A DNA stretch of 64,000 nucleotides, taken from NCBI GenBank assembly GCA_041690135.1, contig JAWLHY010000009.1:32001-96000 (forward strand), written 5' to 3'. A program made the position numbers and the translations under genes. Under the pieces are notes generated by a model. It was given only the letters and a program-made list of their open reading frames with translations, was not told the origin of the DNA and did no database searches. The stretch is from Armatimonadota bacterium (GTDB lineage: Bacteria > Armatimonadota > SYMT01). Positions 12,382-51,412 of the stretch are shown here, piece after piece. Every line of letters starts with the position of its first letter. The stretch's first letter is position 1.

Positions 12382-13665
12382 TCAATCTCTCCGGAAGTAC
12401 GCACAGCACCGGGCGCACACCGGATATGGCCCCTCGGTTGCCAGCCGACGCCGGTGGTCCCGGAATGGCGCGGTGTTCCAGATTTCTCGGAATGGCCGTT
12501 CGAGCACGTTCCCGGCGACCAACTCGAAGCAGGGAGAGACGTCCCCGTTCGGCAGGATATCCGTGCTGGTCCAGGCGCAACTCGGCACCTGCCGGTGGGT
12601 GAACCGTTCCGGCTCGCCGTAATAAACCCGCATCTGCTCGCGATCCAACTCCGGGTACACCAGCACGGGCAGACCGGAGTCCTCCCGCTTCAACCGCTCC
12701 ACCATCTCGAAGAGCGCCTCCGTGTCCACCCCCTCCGTGGCGGTGCCACCCACCCGGTCGAAGTCGAGGGGAAAGCAGTCTCCCCACCGCGCGTTGTGCG
12801 TCTCCACCATACTCCGTGTCAGGAACCAGAAGTGCTGAAAGTTGATCGCCAGCGCCCCCAGGTCTCGCGCAATCGCCGTCATTTCCCGGGCGCTCTCCCA
12901 GGTGCGGCCCGTGATCGCCGTATTGACCACGAGATACGGCCCCCGCCGAGCGGACGCTTCCTCCAGCTTGCCGGTCTTCGCTTCCTTACCGCCTTCTGCC
13001 ATCTGCCCGCTGCCTTCTGCCCACTGCCCGCTGCCTTCTGCCCACTGCCCACTGCCTTCTGCCCACTGCCCACTGCCTTCTGCCTTCTGCCTTCTGCCTT
13101 CTGGAGCGTGGAGCGCTCGCACGCCGCGGAGGGCGCGATCGAAGGTGCCGGTGACCTTCCGAGCGGCATCGTGCACGTCGCGGGGGCCGTCGAGCGAGAG
13201 GACCACGACATCAGGCGGGGCCTGGAGGAGCGCCTCCGCCCGGTGCTCGAGCATGGTGCCGTTGGTGGTAAGGACGCAGATCAGCCCGTGCTGCTTGATG
13301 TGGGCGATCAGTTGGGGGAGGTGCGGGTAGAGGGTTGGCTCCCCTCCCGTGATGCAGATGTACGGCCGGTAAGGCGCAACCTCATCCACGATGCGGCGCC
13401 AGTCGTCGATGCCCAGCCAGTCCCGCTTTCCGAACACGTCCCCATTCGCCACGAACCGGCAGAACTCGCACCGGAGGTTGCAGCGGAGCGTCGGCTTCAG
13501 TGTCAGGTACCGTGGCGGCAGGCTTTGTCCATCCCCCGCCCATCGCTCCAGGGGCAGCATGGCGTTCCGCAGGCGGTTCTGCACATACCAGTGGATCAAC
13601 GCCGGGTGCTGTCCTGCAATTCGAGCGCCGCACCGCAGGATGTGGCGAGTATTACCAGTGAGCAT
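12382..13665 (-). CDS. Radical SAM protein with SPASM/twitch domain
   Basis: CNLRCEFC (CxxxCxxC), TGGEPT, TTNG, SLDG; C-terminal C...GDVSPC...CARCC. Confidence 0.92.
12990..13101. repeat. 16 tandem TGCC(TT/CA/CG/AT)C heptamers inside the radical SAM CDS
   Basis: Higher-order 21-bp period, translated as repeated QWAEGSG. Confidence 0.92.
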
Positions 13666-31458: not shown

Positions 31459-32883
31459 TCATGAGGCGCTCGCCAGAACCGTCTGCGGGTGCGCGCGGCC
31501 GATCACGTAGGCTAGCTGGGCGCGCGCCCGGGCGACCGCGTAACGGGCGGTCACGGCATCGGTGCGGGCGCGGGTGACTACGGTTTCCGCCTCAGTGACC
31601 CGCAGCGCCGGCGCGATGCCCGCAGCCACCTGCTTGCGCGCGACTTCCAGTGCCTCTTCGGCGGCCTTCACGCGGGCCGCCTCGGCGCTTTGGCGCTGTT
31701 CGGCGGCTTCCAGGGCGACTCGTGTCTGCTCGATCTGCTCCTCCGCCAGGCGCTCGGCTTCCTTGAGGTTCGCTCCCGCGCGCTGGCGAGTGGCGCGAGC
31801 CGCCTCTACCTGCGCGCGCGACCGGCCGCCATCGAACAACGTTTGCACGATGGCGCTGCCCAGAGACCAGGCGAAACCGCCCAGCAGCGTTTCCGGCAGG
31901 CGCTGGAGTAGATTGCCTCGCAGTGCGACGAACGGCCGCCGGGCCGCCCGGGCCTGGTCGACTCCCGCTTCTGCCGCTTCGACGTCCTCGCGCATTGCCC
32001 GCAGGTCGGGTCGCTCCTTCCCAAGGTTCCGGGCTTCCTCGGCGGTGAGCCGTGCGGTGTCACCGCTGGCACGCCCGTCGCTGAACGCCACCGTTTGCGC
32101 GGAAGCCGGTACCGGCACCAGTGCCACGACGGTTTCGGCCGGACGACCGATGAGGGTGTTCAGCGTAGCCGCCCGCTGTTTGAGCTGGGCCTGCGCCTCG
32201 ATTTCCCGCTGCGTCGCTCCGGCCAGGTCCGCTTCGGCCTCCGTCACCTCCAGGGGAGCGCCGACGCCGGCTTCCACCCGGACACGTCCGATCCGCAAGC
32301 GTTCCGCTTCCAGCGCGCGCAACTCCGCCAGCACCCGGGTCTGCTCCTGCGCTTCCAGCGTACCCAGATAGGCCTCAGTCACGTCCAGGACCAGGCGTTG
32401 GGCCTCCTGTTCTTCGCGCGCGAGGGCAGCCCGCTCGGCCCGGCTCGCGGCCTTCTTGCCGGCTTTAACGCGTCCCCCCGTGTAGATCGGGATGGAGAGA
32501 TCGACGTTCCCCTCGAACGAGCGGTTGGGGGTGATACTGGGGCCGCCGCCGATGGAGCGCTCCGGGCCCTGGAACAGGCCGGAAGAGTTGAGGCCCACTT
32601 CCGGCCTCCCTTCCGCGGCGGCGCCTCGTTTCTGGGCGCGTGCGCCCGCGGTGGAGCCGCGGGCCGCCTCCAGGCGGGGGCTCACTGCCAGGGCCATGGC
32701 GAGGACGTCGCCCAATGTCAGCGAGTCCGCGGGAGAGGTGGTCGCCGCAGGCGGTGGCGGGATCGCCTGACCGGCGGAAACGGGCGCCACCACGAAGGGA
32801 GTCGTGGCGAAGAGGAGGAGTCCGGCGATCAGGGGCCGCTTGCGCAGACGGGATCCGGGTTCAGTGGGAGAGAAATGTGACAT
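31459..32883 (-). CDS. TolC family outer membrane efflux protein
   Basis: Signal peptide, LTLGDVLAMALAVSP, SIPIYTGGR, VTEAY, QTLFDGGR and two OEP repeats. Start at ATG 32883, not the longer ORF start. Confidence 0.9.
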   Translation of the reverse strand: MSHFSPTEPGSRLRKRPLIAGLLLFATTPFVVAPVSAGQAIPPPPAATTSPADSLTLGDVLAMALAVSPRLEAARGSTAGARAQKRGAAAEGRPEVGLNSSGLFQGPERSIGGGPSITPNRSFEGNVDLSIPIYTGGRVKAGKKAASRAERAALAREEQEAQRLVLDVTEAYLGTLEAQEQTRVLAELRALEAERLRIGRVRVEAGVGAPLEVTEAEADLAGATQREIEAQAQLKQRAATLNTLIGRPAETVVALVPVPASAQTVAFSDGRASGDTARLTAEEARNLGKERPDLRAMREDVEAAEAGVDQARAARRPFVALRGNLLQRLPETLLGGFAWSLGSAIVQTLFDGGRSRAQVEAARATRQRAGANLKEAERLAEEQIEQTRVALEAAEQRQSAEAARVKAAEEALEVARKQVAAGIAPALRVTEAETVVTRARTDAVTARYAVARARAQLAYVIGRAHPQTVLASAS

Positions 32884-44419: not shown

Positions 44420-45658
44420 TCACTCCTTTGCGGACGGTTTCCCTGGCGCATCGCCGGAAAAACCGCGGACGGGCAACGGCAACTTCTCTCCACCAGGCTC
44501 CCCACTCTGCGCCGCCACGGGGAGGTCGTGCGGCGAGAGGGGCGGAGCGGATGAGGGAAGTGGCAGGTGCTTGAGACGCTCCGTGGCCTTCTCGATGTGA
44601 GAGATAGCGGCGCGGTAGGCGGCGATCGACTCCGGTCCTTCGAGGCCCCAGGGAGAACAGAGTTTCCGGAGCCTGGGGAGAGCCCGCTGCAACTCGGGGC
44701 TCGGGTCGTGCCGGGCGATATGGGCCAGGGCCTGGGCCGCGGCCCGGCGCGTGTGTGGCTGCGCTTGCTCCAGGGCGTTGCAGAGCGTGGGTACTGCTGG
44801 CGCGCCGATCCCAGCCAGTATGATCCAGGCCCGGCTGCGCAGGTCGCCATCCTCGACGGAAAGTAGCTCTCCCAGCGGGGCCGCCGCCAGGGCTCCCACC
44901 CGCACCAGCGCGACACCCGCCTTCTGCGACAGCAGGGCATCCGTGGAGCGCATGGAGGCCATCAGGGCGGCAACCGACTCCCGGCAGGGTATGCGGCCGA
45001 GGCCCTCCACGGCAGTCCAACGTACCTGTGACACATGGTCCGACAGGAGCTTTGTTAACTGGGGGAGCGCGCGCGGGTCGCGGAGCCCTCCCAGTGCGGC
45101 GGCGACTTCAACGCGCACCCCTGGGCTGCGGTCTTCCACCGCCTCACGTAAAACGTCCAAAGACCGGATGTCCGGATGGGCGCGGAGGACGCCGGCGGCG
45201 GACTGCCGGACGCCGTTATCGGCGTCCCGCATCGCTCGTTCTGCGAGGAGACGCGCGCGTTCCTCGACCGTCGTGGACATGCGCTCTCCAAGCGCCTCCA
45301 CTACCTGGCGACGCACGGGGGGCTGGGGATCCATTAGGAGTTGCTCCAGGAGATCGAGGGCCTCCGTTTCCGGCCTCCGCCCGAGAAGCCAGGCGAGTCG
45401 CACGCGCAAGAGGGTGTCGGGACAACGGAGCAACTCCCGCAACGTCGGAACCACGGCACTGCCGGAGGCCGCCAGGTTCTCAGCCGTCCGCTGCCAGTCT
45501 CCTTCGCGCGCGAGGAGGCCGGCAGCAAGCCGGTCCGGATCGAGACGATGCCCTTCCCACGGGCTATCGATGCCGGTTGGCTCCGCGGCGTGCCGCTGAG
45601 GAGTTGGCTCGCTATCGGGTTGGTTGTGAGGCGGGGTCCTGGAGTTGATCGTCGTCAC
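44420..45658 (-). CDS. HEAT (PBS-lyase type) repeat protein, paralog 5
   Basis: Repeats of the form VRxxAxxALGxL; GTG start overlapping the upstream stop (GTGA); triple LPxP tail. Confidence 0.85.
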   Translation of the reverse strand: MTTINSRTPPHNQPDSEPTPQRHAAEPTGIDSPWEGHRLDPDRLAAGLLAREGDWQRTAENLAASGSAVVPTLRELLRCPDTLLRVRLAWLLGRRPETEALDLLEQLLMDPQPPVRRQVVEALGERMSTTVEERARLLAERAMRDADNGVRQSAAGVLRAHPDIRSLDVLREAVEDRSPGVRVEVAAALGGLRDPRALPQLTKLLSDHVSQVRWTAVEGLGRIPCRESVAALMASMRSTDALLSQKAGVALVRVGALAAAPLGELLSVEDGDLRSRAWIILAGIGAPAVPTLCNALEQAQPHTRRAAAQALAHIARHDPSPELQRALPRLRKLCSPWGLEGPESIAAYRAAISHIEKATERLKHLPLPSSAPPLSPHDLPVAAQSGEPGGEKLPLPVRGFSGDAPGKPSAKE

Positions 45659-46740
45659 TCCTTTCCCCTGAATCGGTTGAAGTGGCACCGGACCGCCGTG
45701 ATGACAGCAGTCAGCAGCGCCTGTACCCCTTCGAGAGGAACTCGGCGTGCACTGGAAGACGCAGGAGGGTTGTCCGGAGGAGGCGAGCCGACAGGGCGGG
45801 GGAGACGGCAGTCTCTTTCCAGGGGGCCTTTACCCACGAGCGGAAGCTGGTGGACCGTATTCGGAGCCGAATCCGCCGGTAAGGGCAATCCGCGCACGTG
45901 CGCCGTCGCCCGTTCGATCTTGCGGATAGCCTCCTGATACACGTCGCCAGCGCCGTTGAGCTCTCCAAGGTGCGCCGCCGACCCGACCAGCCGCCGGAGT
46001 CGCGGCAGCGCGCCCTCGAGGCCGGGCGTGGGGTCTCGCTCGGCGATGCCGCAGAGGGCCTCCGCCGCCCGGAACCGGATGAGTTCCTGGTCCTGAAGGG
46101 CGGCGATCAGGCCCAGCACGGCCCGGGCGTCTCCCACCTTCCCGAGCGCTTCCGCGGCCGCGGCACGGACCTCCGTATCCCGGTCGCGGAGCGCTTCGAC
46201 CAACGCCGGCACGGCACTCCCGCTGCCGAGCAGTCCCAGGGCTCGCGCCGCTTGCCGCCGGACACTCCGGTCATTATCTTCCAGGACCGCCTCCAGCGTG
46301 GAAATGATCTCCCGGCGCGGTGCTTTCTCGACCGCTTCGGGAGCCCGTTCGATGAGGAGCGCCAGTGCTTCCACGCAGCGGTGGCGCACGCGCCAATGCT
46401 CGTCGCGGGCTCCCTGCGTAAGAGGGAGCAGGGCCCGCCCGTCCGCCACTCGCCGGAGCGCCTCGGCCGCCTCACACCGGACCTCCCAATCGAGGTCCTC
46501 GAGGGCCGCGCAAAGGGGTTCGATGGCTACCGGATCGGCCAGTTCGCCCAGGGTCATCGCTGCCTGGCGGCGCAGTTCCCAATCATCATCCTTCAGGGCG
46601 CGACACAGAGCGGGAAGTGTGGGCGGCCCGAATTGGAGGAGAGACACACGCGCGAGCCGCTGCGTGTTCGGGTTGCGCTCCTTCAACTGGACGATGAGTG
46701 CGGCGATCTCGCCCGGGTCGCGGTCGTTCGTTTTCAGCAC
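45655..46740 (-). CDS. HEAT repeat protein, paralog 4
   Basis: About 7 repeats (ALKDDDWELRRQAAMTLG etc.); triple LPxP tail; start at GTG 46740 inferred. Confidence 0.85.
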   Translation of the reverse strand: MLKTNDRDPGEIAALIVQLKERNPNTQRLARVSLLQFGPPTLPALCRALKDDDWELRRQAAMTLGELADPVAIEPLCAALEDLDWEVRCEAAEALRRVADGRALLPLTQGARDEHWRVRHRCVEALALLIERAPEAVEKAPRREIISTLEAVLEDNDRSVRRQAARALGLLGSGSAVPALVEALRDRDTEVRAAAAEALGKVGDARAVLGLIAALQDQELIRFRAAEALCGIAERDPTPGLEGALPRLRRLVGSAAHLGELNGAGDVYQEAIRKIERATAHVRGLPLPADSAPNTVHQLPLVGKGPLERDCRLPRPVGSPPPDNPPASSSARRVPLEGVQALLTAVITAVRCHFNRFRGKE

Positions 46741-46768
46741 CTTCGGCCCCGTTCCGGTGAGTGCTGGC

Positions 46769-47395
46769 TCATCCCAGCATTCCCGGCCAAATGTATGCGA
46801 GGAACCGCATAGCCCAGTAGATCGTGGGACGAGTTCCCGGTGTCTCGTAATCTGCGTTGGGTAGGGCCGCAAGGGGGAGGCGGGACTCGGACCCAACGGT
46901 AGGAAAGGCCGGCCGGGGCAGCGTTTCGTTGGATTGAGCGCCGGCCAGGGCGGGGAGGGGAAGGTCCTTAAAGCCGGCCGTGACTATCTCGATCTTCTCC
47001 AGCGTCAGGCGGCACTCCCGCTGCACCACCGGAAGCTCGGAACGGCGGTGCGCAATCCGCCTTCGGAGCAACGGGACAGCCGTCCGGAGCTCCGGGCCCG
47101 GGCAGTGGTCCGCCAGGTCCCGGAGCGCCTTCGCCGCGGCCTGCCGGACTGGAAAACTCAGGTCTCCGAGGGCCTGGCAGAGAGGCCCCACGGCGTCCGG
47201 ATGGCCGGTGGCTCCCAGGGCGCGCACGGCAGCCAGGCGCTGATCGCGCGTCCGCATCTCCCAGAAGGGATCATCCGCGCCTACAACTCCTGTTTTTGGC
47301 ACCCGGAGCACCTCTGCGAGCCGCGGCACCGTCTCGGTGGGAAGGAGAGGTCCGTCTTCGGGGTTTAGAGGCGCCCACATCCTGTTCGGCTCCAT
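46769..47395 (-). CDS. HEAT repeat protein, paralog 3
   Basis: RLAAVRALG and ALGDLSFPVRQAAAKAL; triple LPxP tail. Confidence 0.8.
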   Translation of the reverse strand: MEPNRMWAPLNPEDGPLLPTETVPRLAEVLRVPKTGVVGADDPFWEMRTRDQRLAAVRALGATGHPDAVGPLCQALGDLSFPVRQAAAKALRDLADHCPGPELRTAVPLLRRRIAHRRSELPVVQRECRLTLEKIEIVTAGFKDLPLPALAGAQSNETLPRPAFPTVGSESRLPLAALPNADYETPGTRPTIYWAMRFLAYIWPGMLG

Positions 47396-47420
47396 CGGCT
47401 TGAGTCCACCTGTTCCAGGA

Positions 47421-48518
47421 TTACTTTAAACGACTCCGTAGCCAGCCCATCCACCGCTGGAGCCAGTGCCCATGGGCCACGGCCGGTAGCCCGAGGTCCG
47501 TACCGGAGGATGACGGCAGCGGCAACTCGCCGGCCACGGGATTGGGGGCTCCCGCGGGCCGGGGGAGAGCGTGGGCCTCCATCGCTCCGGACTCGGCCGG
47601 GAGCGGCAGGTCATACAGTTCCGCCGTCGCCGTTTCGACGGCATCGAGTGCGGCCTGATACTTTTCCCGGGCTACCGCCCCTTCGCGATTCCAGCCGGAG
47701 GCGAGACGCTGCAGTGAACTCACTGCCCCGCGCAGAGCCAGCACGTGGTGCTCGCGGGCCACGTCTCGCAGCGCCATCGCGGCCTCCTGGCGCACCTCGG
47801 CACGGCGGTCTTCAAGCGCCTCGATGAGCAGGGGAATCGTTTCCGGGTTCTTCAGCTTACCCAGGACGCGCACGGCCAACATCCGGGCATCCGCGTTTGC
47901 TTCCCGGACGACTTCCGCTAGCGGTTGAATCGTCGGGTCTCCGATCTGGACCAGGGCCAGCCAGGCACGCTCCTGGACCGTTTCGAACTTGTCCCAAAGC
48001 GCCGCGGTGAGCACGGGAATCGCGGAAGGATCCCCGATCCGGCCGAGGGCTTCGGCGGCCTCCATACGGAGCAGGGCTCGCTGCTCCTTCGTGGGCGCCG
48101 GAACCGGAGCGCCGTTCTCCAGCCGGTCGTCTCGCTCGAGAGCGTTGTGGGCGGGCTGCCACATGTAGCCGAACTTGTCCTTTAGCGCCGCACAGAGAGC
48201 GGGCACGGCGGATACGTCCCGGATCCGTCCCAGTACCCAGGCCGCGCGCCAGCGGACCGCCCAGTCCTCGTGGCGGAGTGCCTCGCACAGCGCATCCACA
48301 GGTCGAGAACCCATGCCGACCAGGCGCGTTTGGGCCGCCGTGCTCACGGTCCAATCCGCGCTGCCCAGGTCGCGGATCAACTCCGCGAGGGGATCCAGGT
48401 CCTCTCCGGGAGGCTCGTTCCGCGGAGGGGTGCCGGGCGAGCCGGAAGGAGGCAGCCCCTCCATCGGGGGCGGCCGCAGCGAAAGCCGGGTCAGGGGCGT
48501 GGGGATGAACTCGTGCAT
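47421..48518 (-). CDS. HEAT repeat protein, paralog 2
   Basis: ALRHEDWAVRWRAAWVLG and ALEDRRAEVRQEAAMAL; triple LPxP tail. Confidence 0.87.
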   Translation of the reverse strand: MHEFIPTPLTRLSLRPPPMEGLPPSGSPGTPPRNEPPGEDLDPLAELIRDLGSADWTVSTAAQTRLVGMGSRPVDALCEALRHEDWAVRWRAAWVLGRIRDVSAVPALCAALKDKFGYMWQPAHNALERDDRLENGAPVPAPTKEQRALLRMEAAEALGRIGDPSAIPVLTAALWDKFETVQERAWLALVQIGDPTIQPLAEVVREANADARMLAVRVLGKLKNPETIPLLIEALEDRRAEVRQEAAMALRDVAREHHVLALRGAVSSLQRLASGWNREGAVAREKYQAALDAVETATAELYDLPLPAESGAMEAHALPRPAGAPNPVAGELPLPSSSGTDLGLPAVAHGHWLQRWMGWLRSRLK

Positions 48519-48563
48519 GATGCGGGCACGGACGACGATGTGTTAGGGATTATACCCGCTCTC

Positions 48564-49157
48564 CTAATCTTCTTCAGACGGAAGTGGGAGGCCGCGCGCT
48601 TTGAGTTCGGAGCTTGCCGGGAGTGGGAGGCTCGCAAGCTCGGCCCCGGGAGCCTCGGCAGGTAAGGGAAGGGTGTCGCTCGCGTCTGTCAGCGTCTGGA
48701 TCCGCTCTGCTAGTGCACGGAAGACCACCTTATGATCCCGGTGGACCCTGCCGGAAGCACACAGCTTCTCCAGATCCGGCAACAGTGCACGAAGTGCCGT
48801 GGGTTGTGGACCGTCGAGCAGGGTCAGTAGCGCTTGGGCGATCTCCAGACGAAAGGACAGGTCCGCGCTGAATAGCGGGATATTCGTTATGCGTTCAATC
48901 AGGTTCGGACCCGCTTTGCTTCCCACCATCTTCGATCGCCGCAGGAACTCCTGGCAGAGCACCGGGACAGAGGCCGGGCCGATCCTTGCGAGCGCTTCGA
49001 TCGTGCGACCTTCGAGATCGGGGATTTCTCCGCGAAGGACTCTCTCCAGAACGGGAATAGCAGCCGGATCGCGCAGCTTTCCCAGGGCGACGACCGCATT
49101 GGATCGATCGCTGTGATGTTTAGAGCGAAGGCGCTTCGCAAACGCGGCGACGGACAT
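48564..49157 (-). CDS. HEAT repeat protein, paralog 1
   Basis: RSNAVVALGKLRDPAAIPVL and EALARIGPASVPVL; triple LPLP tail. Confidence 0.8.
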   Translation of the reverse strand: MSVAAFAKRLRSKHHSDRSNAVVALGKLRDPAAIPVLERVLRGEIPDLEGRTIEALARIGPASVPVLCQEFLRRSKMVGSKAGPNLIERITNIPLFSADLSFRLEIAQALLTLLDGPQPTALRALLPDLEKLCASGRVHRDHKVVFRALAERIQTLTDASDTLPLPAEAPGAELASLPLPASSELKARGLPLPSEED

Positions 49158-49187: not shown

Positions 49188-50756
49188 TCATCGCAGCCGG
49201 ACCACCGGTTCGTTGATACGGAGCGGCTGCTTGCGGACCAGGTCCTCCACCGTCGTGCAGAGCCAGCGGTCGCTGTTGATGTGATAGGTCACGCGCAAGC
49301 GGGGCGAGGTGCCGCGACCGATTGGCCGCAACGGGAGCGGGGCATCCGCCGGGTTCAGCTCCACGACCTGGGCCTTTTCCATTGCGTTGTCCGGGCGCGG
49401 CGCCCAGTACCGGTTGCCGTTGGGCCTCGGCTCCCACGCCACGGGCGCCTGCCCAAGCCGGCCGACCTCGCATACGGAGATGCGGACCTCCTCCATGGAA
49501 GGGTAGTCCGCGTAGTAGCGGACCGCAAAGTTGGGAGCGGTGGGGTAGCGGGTACGGCGCGGCACCAGGAGCTCATATTCCGGAGTGTGGGTCCGCTCGT
49601 TCTGCACCGCAACCGCATAGTCGTGGTAGATGAAGTCGTCCACGGCCACCCCGCCCGCGTAGCGCGCCGCTCCCAACGCGACGGACGTGAACACATAAGC
49701 CGGGTCGTGCCGCACGACCGCCTTGGGGAAGGCGTCGTCCACCACGGCCGGGATCTCGGGTAACTGGGTGGAGCCTCCGGTCAGGAGCACCTCGTCGACC
49801 CCGCCGGCCAGGGGGTCCTCCTCGAGCTGGCGTTTGATATCCTGGAGGGCGATGCGAAGTTGCTCGTAGAGCCCTCGCTCCGACAGCACTTTCACCAGGT
49901 CGGCCCGCGTCAACTCCGCGCGGAACCCTCCCCAGCGGAACTCCGCCTTACCTTCCCGGCTGGCGCGCTCCTTGGCGAACATCGCCTCCCAGCGGAGGTC
50001 GCGCTGCCACTCGGGGATGTCACGGACTTCGCCGGGGACGAAATACTCCATCAGCCACCGGTCGACCTGGTCTCCCCCGATATTGACCATGTGCTTGGCC
50101 AGTACGGGCGCGCCGCCGGTGTGCGCCGCCTGGGGACCCAACCGAACGGCGGCCAGGTTCAGCGTGCCACCGCCGAAATCCACGACCAGGAGGGTTTCTT
50201 CCCGCGCGATGTTGACCCCGTATCCCAGTCCGGCCGCGACCGGCTCATCGAGCGATCGGAACCGTTTGATGCCCACGTCCCGGGCCAGGGACTGGAGCTC
50301 CGCCCGGTAATGCTCGAAATAGCCGACCGGCGCGGGGATGGTGAGGTCGGTGATCTTCGTTTGGAACTGCTTTCCCGCCGCGCGCACCAATTCCCGCAGG
50401 AAAAGGTGCGTTACCTCCCGGACGGAAAGCTCCTGGGATCCGACCTTGAGGATTGGCCGGTGTGGCTCGTCGGCGAGGCGGGGCTTGAAGCTCTGGGCGA
50501 AAGCGGGTGAGCGGCCGTCGAAGTTTCGGCTGAGAGCCTGCTGACCAATCAACACCTTGCGCACCCGTCGCCGGAAAAAGTACAGGAACCGCTGCCACTC
50601 CTCGGTAATGTGAACGGCCGAGGGCACAAGTGGCGATTGGTCGGTGGGCAGCGTCCGCCCCAGGTTCGGGAGATGAACCACGCGCACGCTGCCGTCTTCC
50701 GCCAGGGCGACGACGCTGTTCGTGGTCCCGAGATCAACAGCCCACTGTTCAGGCAT
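49188..50756 (-). CDS. Atypical Hsp70-family ATPase
   Basis: AVDLGTTNS, LDEPVAA, VVDFGGGT, IGGDQVD, LLTGGSTQLP and SVALGAA; short non-canonical C-terminal domain. Confidence 0.9.
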   Translation of the reverse strand: MPEQWAVDLGTTNSVVALAEDGSVRVVHLPNLGRTLPTDQSPLVPSAVHITEEWQRFLYFFRRRVRKVLIGQQALSRNFDGRSPAFAQSFKPRLADEPHRPILKVGSQELSVREVTHLFLRELVRAAGKQFQTKITDLTIPAPVGYFEHYRAELQSLARDVGIKRFRSLDEPVAAGLGYGVNIAREETLLVVDFGGGTLNLAAVRLGPQAAHTGGAPVLAKHMVNIGGDQVDRWLMEYFVPGEVRDIPEWQRDLRWEAMFAKERASREGKAEFRWGGFRAELTRADLVKVLSERGLYEQLRIALQDIKRQLEEDPLAGGVDEVLLTGGSTQLPEIPAVVDDAFPKAVVRHDPAYVFTSVALGAARYAGGVAVDDFIYHDYAVAVQNERTHTPEYELLVPRRTRYPTAPNFAVRYYADYPSMEEVRISVCEVGRLGQAPVAWEPRPNGNRYWAPRPDNAMEKAQVVELNPADAPLPLRPIGRGTSPRLRVTYHINSDRWLCTTVEDLVRKQPLRINEPVVRLR

Positions 50757-50761
50757 GAATC

Positions 50762-51412
50762 CTACTTCCGGTCAAACGTAACGGTTAGAGCGTAAACGTC
50801 CGCGGCGCCCGCCATCCGCAGCACGGCCGCGCACTCCGAGAGCGTGGTGCCGGTCGTCCGCACGTCGTCAACGAGCACGAGACGTGCGCCGTGCACCTTG
50901 TGCCGCGGAGTAAGTTCGAACGCACCCCGCAGATTCTCCTCGCGCTCGGCCGCGGAAAGCCCGACCTGGTGCGGCGTGGCGCGGGTGCGACGCAGGGCCT
51001 TCCACACCGGTAGGTCGGCATGTCGACCCGTGGCGTGGGCAAGAAACTCGGACTGGTTGAAGCCCCGCTCGAGAAGACGCCTCCAGTGGATAGGAACGGG
51101 CACCAGCGCGTTTGGTTGCCATTCGGAAAGCAGCGCACGCAGTTCTTCTGAGAGCAACCGGGCCAGCGGTTCCACCAGGGCCACCTGCTGACCGAACTTC
51201 AGCCGCAGCACCGCCCGGCGCAGGCTTTCCTCATGGTAACCCACGCTCCTCACCGCCGTGATTCCCAGCGGTAGCACGCCCGCTTCTTCCACCGGCCGGA
51301 TCTCTGCCCTGCACGCCGCGCAGTACGTCTCCGCCAGCGCCCCACACGTCAGGCACTTCGGCGGAAAGAGCATATCAAGGGTGCCGTTACCGAGCTTGCG
51401 TAGGAGGTCCAT
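50762..51412 (-). CDS. comF: ComF family protein (double zinc ribbon plus phosphoribosyltransferase)
   Basis: LFPPKCLTC...CAAC, VPVPIH, RGFNQS and LVDDVRTTGTT. Confidence 0.92.
   Translation of the reverse strand: MDLLRKLGNGTLDMLFPPKCLTCGALAETYCAACRAEIRPVEEAGVLPLGITAVRSVGYHEESLRRAVLRLKFGQQVALVEPLARLLSEELRALLSEWQPNALVPVPIHWRRLLERGFNQSEFLAHATGRHADLPVWKALRRTRATPHQVGLSAAEREENLRGAFELTPRHKVHGARLVLVDDVRTTGTTLSECAAVLRMAGAADVYALTVTFDRK

Follow-up and report, generated by a model that had tools for sequence, protein, structure and literature searches.

A conserved C-terminal module with three Leu-Pro sites is encoded beside a predicted lid-less Hsp70 paralog in Armatimonadota

Introduction

Bacterial Hsp70 biology rests on DnaK, HscA and HscC, which work with J-proteins and GrpE. 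Hsp70 paralogs of ~520 residues that end without the α-helical lid may be common; an Atlas cluster of look-alike proteins has 9,707 members, a lead only. We know of no partners assigned to such paralogs, and none was found in the literature searched. Here, we describe a row of genes from an Armatimonadota bacterium that encodes one paralog of this kind, P0006, and five HEAT-repeat proteins, P0001 to P0005. The window analysed is a 64,000-nucleotide stretch of DNA (positions 32,001 to 96,000 of contig JAWLHY010000009.1, assembly GCA_041690135.1). The genome that holds it spans 9.1 Mb in 25 contigs. All five HEAT proteins have a C-terminal tail with three Leu-Pro (LP) sites. These tails are probably docking tags for the adjacent Hsp70.

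The closest precedent for the motif itself is the binding of proline-rich peptides to DnaK. The sequence YLPRP occupies the DnaK cleft in forward mode and places its Leu in the central pocket (PMC8864165). A preliminary description of the present locus had cited LPRP binding by DnaK, and that precedent holds. A Leu-Pro-x-Pro core is common to the tails and to the DnaK ligands pyrrhocoricin, oncocin, ARV-1502 and YLPRP. Literal LPRP is found in three of the five window tails. In contrast to these ligands, the tail motif is endogenous, three-fold, set in a fixed 14-residue register and C-terminal on folded proteins. Unlike YLPRP, it has no aromatic residue (Tyr) before the Leu. It is encoded beside a dedicated lid-less Hsp70, rather than being a secreted antimicrobial that acts on a foreign DnaK.

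The nearest mechanistic analogues are the Fes1/HspBP1 and Bag cofactors. Pseudo-substrate segments of HspBP1 and Bag cofactors bind the beta substrate-binding domain (SBD-beta) of Hsp70 (PMC9346034). The likeness lies in an α-solenoid body combined with a flexible pseudo-substrate that binds SBD-beta. Unlike in Fes1/HspBP1, the tail described here is C-terminal and trivalent, and belongs to a family of 29 copies with varied bodies. No sequence relationship to Fes1/HspBP1 was detected; the matches were to generic HEAT/Arm Pfam models only. Ssz1–Zuo1 is similar in that an atypical Hsp70 holds a partner peptide in SBD-beta, a contact that is predicted in the tail system. Ssz1–Zuo1 differs in being eukaryotic, with a single J-domain partner and no repeated motif. 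No J-domain protein was seen among the proteins scanned in the tail cassette.

The sole published bacterial pairing of Hsp70-like and HEAT-like parts found in the literature searched is CnuD of type III CoCoNuT. CnuD combines an Hsp70-like nucleotide-binding domain (NBD) and substrate-binding domain (SBD) with HEAT-like repeats (PMC11090510). CoCoNuTs are built on McrB-like GTPases, DUF2357 (CnuC) and HEPN nucleases, and their Hsp70 motifs are described as degenerate (PMC11090510). In contrast, the Hsp70 described here is paired with HEAT-tail genes only, and its phosphate-binding and catalytic motifs are invariant in 10/10 homologs. The cassette flanks that were scanned contain unrelated genes. 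A defence-system assignment gained no support: PADLOC returned no family for P0006 and generic HEAT models alone for the tail proteins, although PADLOC-DB 2023 may lack CoCoNuT models and no search aimed at McrB was made. The PBS-lyase HEAT-like proteins CpcE/CpcF and NblB are alike in repeat type only, and no phycobilisome context was seen here.

Several elements of the proposed system are of known kinds. These are the Hsp70 NBD, SBD-beta, HEAT repeats, a Leu-Pro peptide ligand and a solenoid cofactor with a pseudo-substrate segment. Not found in print are the module described below, the three-fold register, the pairing with a lid-less Hsp70 clade in two phyla and the presence of ~29 carriers per genome. 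Neither the pairing of the module with a lid-less Hsp70 nor the LPxP motif was found in the literature searched; CoCoNuT supplements, outside that search, could hold related loci.

Results

The three LP sites belong to a conserved C-terminal module

Translation of the five minus-strand open reading frames (ORFs) exactly recovered the tail strings that the preliminary description had quoted for all five HEAT proteins. The pattern is LPLP-x10-LPxx-x10-LPxx near the C-terminus. As had been claimed, start-to-start spacing is 14/14 residues in four proteins and 14/13 in P0005. In a five-way alignment, the only invariant residues past the last helix are L375, P376, L377, P378, L389, P390, L403 and P404 (P0001 numbering). 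LPRP occupies the third site in P0002 and the second site in P0003 and P0004. The remaining sites of the window tails are LPLP, LPLV, LPVA or LPLA. The chance of finding LP-x12-LP-x11/12-LP is 0.08–0.2% per protein (20,000 shuffles each). P0001 to P0005 are paralogous. Hence, the pattern was conserved from a common ancestor and did not arise five times over or by coincidence. Tandem duplication of DNA was rejected as the origin of the 14-residue period. Tandem Repeats Finder (TRF) detected no 42-nt repeat between 44300 and 49300, where it reported three short arrays only, with periods of 11–13 nt.

One detail of the preliminary description needed correction. The spacers between the sites had been called unrelated, which is only partly so. 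In the wider family, the unit is approximately LP[LVR]PA-x-AP-x-PD-x-x-T and repeats in degenerate form every 14 residues. The regular expression that the preliminary description had proposed for a proteome-wide check, LP.[PA].{10}LP.{12}LP, gave 26 matches in 85,981 six-frame ORFs, comprising 11 family members, 10 Cys-rich translations of repetitive DNA and 5 unrelated sequences. P0005 escapes the expression because of its 13-residue spacer. In the window, a 7/21-nt tandem repeat at 12991-13103 has the unit GCCTTCT in 16 copies (TRF score 170 at period 21). Translations of GCCTTCT repeats are LP(S/T)A(H/F)C heptads, and these supply 10 of the 26 matches. Similar arrays occur elsewhere in this genome, at C2:153431, C2:516001, C4:498180, C5:245375, C14:114923 and C15:124878.

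The triple motif belongs to a larger conserved unit, a C-terminal module of 85 residues in which two helices precede the tail. Conservation begins ~50 residues ahead of the first LP, with the helix consensus ..LP.LR.L....A...IE..T. The preliminary description took the motif alone. The larger module escaped it, as did the number of carriers in the genome (29, most of which do not adjoin an Hsp70 gene). A hidden Markov model (HMM) of the module, built from 27 paralog tails, gave 29 matches in the genome at E≤1e-3 and 28 ORFs at E<1e-6. In the alignment, the three prolines are invariant in 27/27 paralogs and the preceding leucines are near-invariant. Counted from gaps, 21 of the 27 alignment rows have 14/14 spacing. 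Module genes are often arranged in tandem, with six in a row at C9:346725-352008, three on C13 and two each on C2 and C3. Carriers other than HEAT proteins, identified with Pfam, are a pentapeptide-repeat protein and a Spo0M-domain protein without a HEAT match; a further carrier combines DUF3137-like and HEAT regions. The module is portable, as this range of bodies shows.

Many carriers have features that suggest proximity to a membrane. A hydropathy scan flagged hydrophobic, transmembrane-like segments in 13/28 paralogs. A motif scan flagged a Trp/Arg-rich amphipathic helix after the tail in 8/28, and two more look alike by eye. Other paralogs end 0–13 residues past the tail. Because about two thirds of the paralogs here have hydrophobic segments or an amphipathic C-terminal helix, we infer a possible role at the membrane. 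Where the Trp/Arg-rich extension is present, it runs 15–45 residues past the third LP (for example, HWLQRWMGWLRSRLK) and looks like a membrane-targeting sequence. Besides P0004 and P0003, the genes concerned are C2:29346, C2:30473, C3:12388, C3:13597, C3:183433, C6:153905 and C17:43465. A class of ~250-residue tail proteins (C9:346725-352008 and C13:51490-54082) has hydrophobic segments in mid-protein instead.

One carrier stands apart. The gene at C1:309534-310835 (L013:6534-7835) encodes a protein with a DUF3137-like N-terminal half, HEAT repeats and an LPRPA tail that closes the chain. It is unlinked to an Hsp70 gene, and its neighbours (DUF1501, DUF1552 and PSD-domain genes) are uninformative. 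A 439-residue partner from Gemmatimonadota is a full-length homolog of this protein (34% identity, E 2e-44). This type may be the ancestral form of the tail family.

The module is not confined to this genome. When compared with 1.84 billion representative sequences, the module profile matched 740 clusters at E≤1e-3, of which 257 reached E≤1e-10. Among the best 150 clusters, 109 have three sites and 41 have at most two in register. The preliminary description had named a lack of conserved spacing in homologs as a refuting result, and the spacing is kept: 82 of the 109 triples have the 14/14 register, and 101 have 14 residues between the second and third sites. In the best 150 clusters, the median distance from the third LP to the C-terminus is 8 residues, and the module is almost always terminal. 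Gemmatimonadota tails read LPRPA-x9-LPRPA-x9-LPR- and are mostly 14/14. In databases, proteins of this family go by no name more specific than "HEAT repeat domain-containing protein" or "hypothetical protein". The tail of P0008, used as the query in a word-indexed search for homologs, gave 11 matches. The four with organism names are from Armatimonadota/Armatimonadetes, so this search added no taxonomic range. In related genomes (G005:C3:113369-120612 and contigs of G002), several module matches lie in frames with one in-frame TGA, such as the 962-residue frame at G005:C3:115412. Such frames may run through two neighbouring genes, or may be damaged copies inside tandem arrays.

P0006 resembles an Hsp70 without its lid

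P0006 comprises an NBD (residues 1 to ~372), the linker VDDFIYHDY and an SBD-beta that extends to the C-terminus. Pfam HSP70 matched residues 7–381 only (E 9.6e-23). The AlphaFold2 (AF2) model of the whole protein has a predicted local distance difference test (pLDDT) score of 85.9; in it, the chain ends after an all-beta C-terminal domain. Lid-deleted DnaK (5obu) was the top Foldseek match of the whole protein (E 9.6e-31). The best whole-chain matches, 5obu and 5obv, are both DnaK constructs without SBD-alpha. Consistent with the actin fold of Hsp70 proteins, the NBD aligned with that of DnaK over 336 residues (VIA Z 37.5, root-mean-square deviation (rmsd) 2.4 Å). The residues D8, G10, K91, D170-E171-P172, D193/G195/G197 and G327-G328-S329 are invariant in 10/10 homologs, as is the linker. 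We take these motifs to be the equivalents of D8/K70/E171/D194 in DnaK.

Modelled alone, the C-terminal domain is again all-beta (AF2 pLDDT 92.1). It aligned with SBD-beta of Hsp70 proteins with VIA-align Z scores of 11.5–9.2 and an rmsd of 2.3–3.0 Å over 105–113 residues. Titles in 49 of the 50 VIA rows listed name Hsp70-family chaperones, substrate-binding domains or complexes with them. In the rows for E. coli DnaK chains, the aligned range runs from 392 to 499–505. Structural matches of the domain include entries of the DnaK SBD with pyrrhocoricin or oncocin. Both the whole protein and the beta domain have PDB 6sr6 ("RAC core with a pseudo substrate bound to Ssz1 SBD") as one of their top matches. 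P0006 thus has the SBD-beta of the Hsp70 family in addition to the NBD. The α-helical lid (SBD-alpha) is absent, as the final beta strand closes the chain at residue 522. Since no lid follows and the best matches are lid-deleted, P0006 is, on its predicted structure, an atypical, lid-less Hsp70 and not a canonical DnaK. The NCBIfam scores of P0006 are 81.2 bits for DnaK (cut-off 822.55) and 101.2 bits for HscA (cut-off 708.55).

Neither a J-domain nor a GrpE family was detected in the cassette proteins scanned. Further Hsp70 homologs in the genome are found at C3:725048 and C1:1527599. There is also a second divergent lid-less paralog at L005:7107-8759 (C19:104107-105759), which has 41% identity and a long tree branch. 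It is followed by a gene for a HEAT protein at L005:8741-9892 (C19:105741-106892). This protein keeps the ..IRRIESAT helix; its tail is degenerate and contains a single LP (module E 4.4e-4).

Tail genes accompany the Hsp70 paralog in two phyla

We examined 11 loci that encode P0006 homologs, with identities of 57–74% in Armatimonadota and 42–45% in Gemmatimonadota. Tail genes lie directly downstream of the Hsp70 gene in seven (L027, L029, L031, L032, L034, L035 and L036). In L028, the tail gene is upstream on the same strand, and the other three loci stop at a contig edge. All five module matches in four Gemmatimonadota genomes are directly downstream of the Hsp70 paralog. The number of tail genes varies. 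Seven at E≤1e-3, plus an eighth weaker match, follow the Hsp70 gene in genome G005; 12 surround it in G031; and there are three convergent tail genes in G001. The cassette flanks also vary, with a ComF-family gene here and genes for an amino-acid permease, a beta-lactamase-family protein or an alpha/beta hydrolase in Gemmatimonadota. Among the loci compared, the Hsp70 paralog is the sole conserved neighbour of the tail genes.

Across 201 Armatimonadota genomes, the module was found at E≤1e-5 in 23 and a match to the P0006 C-terminal domain in 41. Every one of the 17 genomes whose domain matches score best also has the module, whereas no module was found in the remaining 24 with a domain match. 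For a grouping less arbitrary than a score cut, we inferred a quick maximum-likelihood tree from 47 Hsp70 rows. This tree is unrooted, with Shimodaira–Hasegawa-like approximate likelihood ratio test (SH-aLRT) support only. Rows left out were L045 (score and length as for L026), L034 (a fragment), and L055 and L062 (genes split over two ORFs). Two clades, both supported by an SH-aLRT value of 100, contain the tail-linked Hsp70s. One comprises Armatimonadota (12 rows) and the other Gemmatimonadota with one Armatimonadota family (11 rows). An adjacent tail gene is present in 15/23 rows of these clades versus 0/21 other ingroup rows. The other rows of the tail-linked clades are at a contig edge (3) or have no tail gene within ~3 kb (5). 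None of the remaining 21 ingroup rows is from a module-bearing genome. Because related genomes are not independent, the clade pattern is best read as long retention after a cassette that originated once or twice.

Two observations concern the wider tree. The Gemmatimonadota copies (within L031–L036 and L049–L054) group with one Armatimonadota family (SH-aLRT 100), not outside all Armatimonadota, in this unrooted tree. This grouping inside Armatimonadota suggests transfer of the Hsp70 and tail cassette between the two phyla. In the distant Hsp70-like loci L037–L041, no module was found at E<1. In two loci of a sister clade without LPxP tails (L038:7726-8550 and L039:9270-11081), the gene after Hsp70 encodes, when read by eye, a protein with a TPR-like N-terminal part, an extended low-complexity region rich in Pro and Ser, and hydrophobic segments at the C-terminus. 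This neighbour may be an analogous partner with solenoid, disordered and membrane parts.

The middle LP site is predicted to contact the beta domain

We predicted the complex of full-length P0006 with residues 40–85 of the P0004 module, using alignments. The interaction prediction score from aligned errors (ipSAE) was 0.69, 0.64 and 0.69 in three runs, and 0.00–0.01 in three controls. In a benchmark, the ipSAE mark was reached by 58/80 solved complexes and 2/110 mismatched pairs. Contact agreement between the runs was 57% or higher, with a partner pLDDT of 47–51. In the predicted interface, the middle site, MEAHALPRPAGAP, is bound with its Leu central (L65-P-R-P-A of the P0004 module). Residues contacted in P0006 are 382-385, 390-392, 395, 413-418, 423-427, 446, 448, 473, 484-489 and 506. 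Among these, 382-385, 413-418, 423-427 and 484-489 are strands of the beta domain. Judged from the VIA ranges (C-terminal domain 1–150 versus DnaK 392–505), the contacted surface would be the canonical Hsp70 cleft. The predicted pose resembles that of YLPRP in DnaK, with the tail Leu at the centre of contact in the SBD-beta cleft.

The preliminary description had suggested three docking targets, namely the neighbouring Hsp70, an oligomeric partner or a HEAT groove. The SBD-beta fold, the gene linkage across phyla and the predicted contact of LPRP with the cleft (ipSAE 0.69) favour the Hsp70, with binding itself predicted only. We also looked for a signature among the cleft residues that changes along with presence of the tail. 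None was found, as most contact residues are equally conserved in tail-less clades. P485 is the sole contact residue that is common in the tail-linked clades and rare in others.

Discussion

Taken together, the models and the gene linkage indicate that the tail is probably a multivalent pseudo-substrate or docking tag for the dedicated lid-less Hsp70. The module would present three LP-x-[PA] sites on a disordered proline-rich tail, behind two capping helices. It would mark mostly HEAT-repeat proteins as partners of the paralog. Each LPxP site may act as a pseudo-substrate, with its Leu entering the hydrophobic pocket of the beta-domain cleft like the Leu of YLPRP in DnaK. The HEAT or other body would thus be tethered to the ATPase. 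Sites 14 residues apart would permit rapid rebinding, or capture of more than one Hsp70 at once. Docked carriers could be adaptors that bring targets, regulators resembling exchange factors, or membrane tethers.

A number of observations weigh against docking. The score of the complex may in part reflect likeness to the many solved DnaK–peptide structures, those with pyrrhocoricin and oncocin included, a caution that the prediction tool itself gives. Partner pLDDT is below 50 in at least one run. Residues E395, R413, Y414, Y415, R486, L487 and R488 are equally conserved in two tail-less clades. Only the middle motif is placed in the cleft by the prediction, and 1:1 binding leaves three sites in a 14-residue register unaccounted for. 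Identification of the beta domain is also indirect: compared with PDB chains by sequence, it gave no match at E≤10, and Foldseek with this domain alone gave none at E≤1e-3 (best 3.9e-3), although the listed chains are nonetheless mostly titled Hsp70 family or substrate-binding domain. The linkage has exceptions. In this genome, 24 of the 29 module genes adjoin neither Hsp70 paralog. The cut between close and distant domain matches in the 201 genomes was picked post hoc, and related genomes are not independent. Six of the 23 module-bearing genomes (G006, G018, G071, G134, G159 and G195) have no domain match. Two of these are nearly complete (G018, 98%, with 3–4 modules; G071, 96%, with 6 modules). 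Finally, the Hsp70 genes L046, L047 and L050–L052 are from module-bearing genomes and have no tail gene within ~3 kb.

A more far-reaching form of the docking model is one that we regard as unlikely. Here, the tail would be a molecular ruler, with each of the three sites capturing one lid-less Hsp70. Up to ~29 solenoid adaptors in each cell, interchangeable and in many cases anchored in the membrane, would then assemble or template Hsp70 oligomers there. We estimate the distance between sites as ~43–48 Å if the tail is extended. Were this so, multivalent tails on adaptors, not J-proteins, would organise a bacterial Hsp70 system.

Among other explanations, the tail might label its carriers as clients or regulators of housekeeping DnaK, or of Hsp70s generally, so that adjacency reflects a shared pathway. 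Canonical DnaK binds LPRP-type peptides (PMC8864165). The genome has other Hsp70 homologs (the genes on C3 and C1), most tail genes are unlinked to the paralog, and the six module-bearing genomes just listed lack the paralog domain match. Even so, we consider this improbable. To our knowledge DnaK is near-universal, whereas the module is present in just 23/201 Armatimonadota genomes. Furthermore, the module tracks two paralog clades and, in Gemmatimonadota, lies beside the paralog in 5/5 matches.

Alternatively, the tail could be a passive polyproline-II spacer leading to a membrane anchor or to the protein end, with LP kept for stiffness and length. A Pro/Ala-rich composition and low modelling confidence (pLDDT 47–51) fit a spacer, as do the amphipathic helix (8/28) and hydrophobic segments (13/28) expected next to a membrane-side linker. 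However, about half of the paralogs end no more than 13 residues past the third LP, which leaves nothing to space. Invariant prolines (27/27) and near-invariant leucines between free spacers are the signature of recognition sites, not of a stiff rod. Since a spacer also leaves the Hsp70 linkage unexplained, we give this explanation little credence.

Alpha-solenoid grooves often bind extended peptides. Hence, the tail could dock in the concave HEAT groove, either its own (autoinhibition) or that of a paralog (head-to-tail polymers), and tandem arrays of 3–12 paralogs could co-assemble in this way. Such docking is very doubtful, as the tail is also found on very short HEAT proteins and on the pentapeptide-repeat and Spo0M-domain proteins, which have no HEAT match. 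Least credible of all is a C-terminal signal for other machinery (read by a protease as a degron, by a secretion or sorting apparatus, or by a proline-directed modifying enzyme): many sorting tags and degrons sit at the extreme C-terminus, and a third LP with a median of 8 residues to the end is placed typically for these, but the Hsp70 paralog is the only conserved neighbour, the flanks vary from locus to locus, and no protease, transporter or modifying enzyme recurs beside the cassette.

The locus gives one lid-less Hsp70 paralog concrete candidate partners by means of a short, defined docking element. If docking on this Hsp70 is true, the system would be the prokaryotic equivalent of pseudo-substrate use by Fes1/HspBP1, Bag and Zuo1–Ssz1. 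It would also be an adaptor family grown to dozens of copies around one chaperone. If docking fails, the module is still a well-defined and previously unnamed C-terminal domain, found in 740 clusters and nearly always terminal.

Gene row and neighbouring features

P0006 and the five tail genes form one row on the same strand (Table 1). P0005 is first after P0006, with a gap of 30 nt. Gaps between genes from P0006 through the first four HEAT genes are 25–45 nt.

Table 1. Coordinates of the Hsp70 paralog, the tail genes and adjoining features in the window
Feature	Position	Strand	Length	Module (nt)	Three-site motif	Basis or remark
P0006, Hsp70 paralog	49188..50756	(-)	522 aa			Pfam HSP70, AF2, Foldseek, VIA
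P0006 C-terminal beta domain, predicted tail-docking site	49191..49640	(-)	residues 373-522			AF2, VIA-align, complex prediction
P0005, HEAT	48564..49157	(-)	197 aa	48570-48818	residues 163-193, nt 48579-48671, 14/13	
P0004, HEAT	47421..48518	(-)	365 aa	47505-47759	residues 304-335, nt 47514-47609, 14/14	
P0004 Trp/Arg-rich amphipathic C-terminal helix	47424-47468	(-)				
P0003, HEAT	46769..47395	(-)	208 aa	46859-47113	residues 145-176, nt 46868-46963, 14/14	
P0003 aromatic C-terminal helix	46772-46825	(-)				
P0002, HEAT	45655..46896	(-)	413 aa (longest ORF)	45784-46044	residues 337-368, nt 45793-45888, 14/14	
P0001, HEAT	44420..45688	(-)	422 aa	44462-44716	residues 375-406, nt 44471-44566, 14/14	final gene of row
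ComF-family phosphoribosyltransferase-like gene	50762-51412	(-)				TIGR00201 E 5.9e-33, under its cut-off

Pfam HEAT_2 was detected in all five tail proteins, with scores of 125.4, 132.5, 38.5, 111.4 and 28.5 bits (gathering cut-off 27.7; E 1.1e-36 to 1.9e-6). HEAT_PBS also exceeded its cut-off of 20.9 in all five (E 5.9e-22 to 4e-7). Identity as phycobilin lyases was rejected, with best scores of 72.2 bits for CpcE (cut-off 330) and 58.2 bits for CpcF (cut-off 220). The same applies to NblB, for which NCBIfam scores were 47.1–60.5 bits against a cut-off of 300. Since these scores are far under the cut-offs, the five proteins have only the repeat type in common with CpcE/F and NblB, and do not belong to those families.

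The ComF-family gene ends 5 nt ahead of the start of P0006. It was rejected as a conserved partner, as no homolog was found across 14 related loci; its juxtaposition with the Hsp70 gene is probably local. For P0002, the protein collection holds a 361-residue form with its start at 46740 and an identical tail string.

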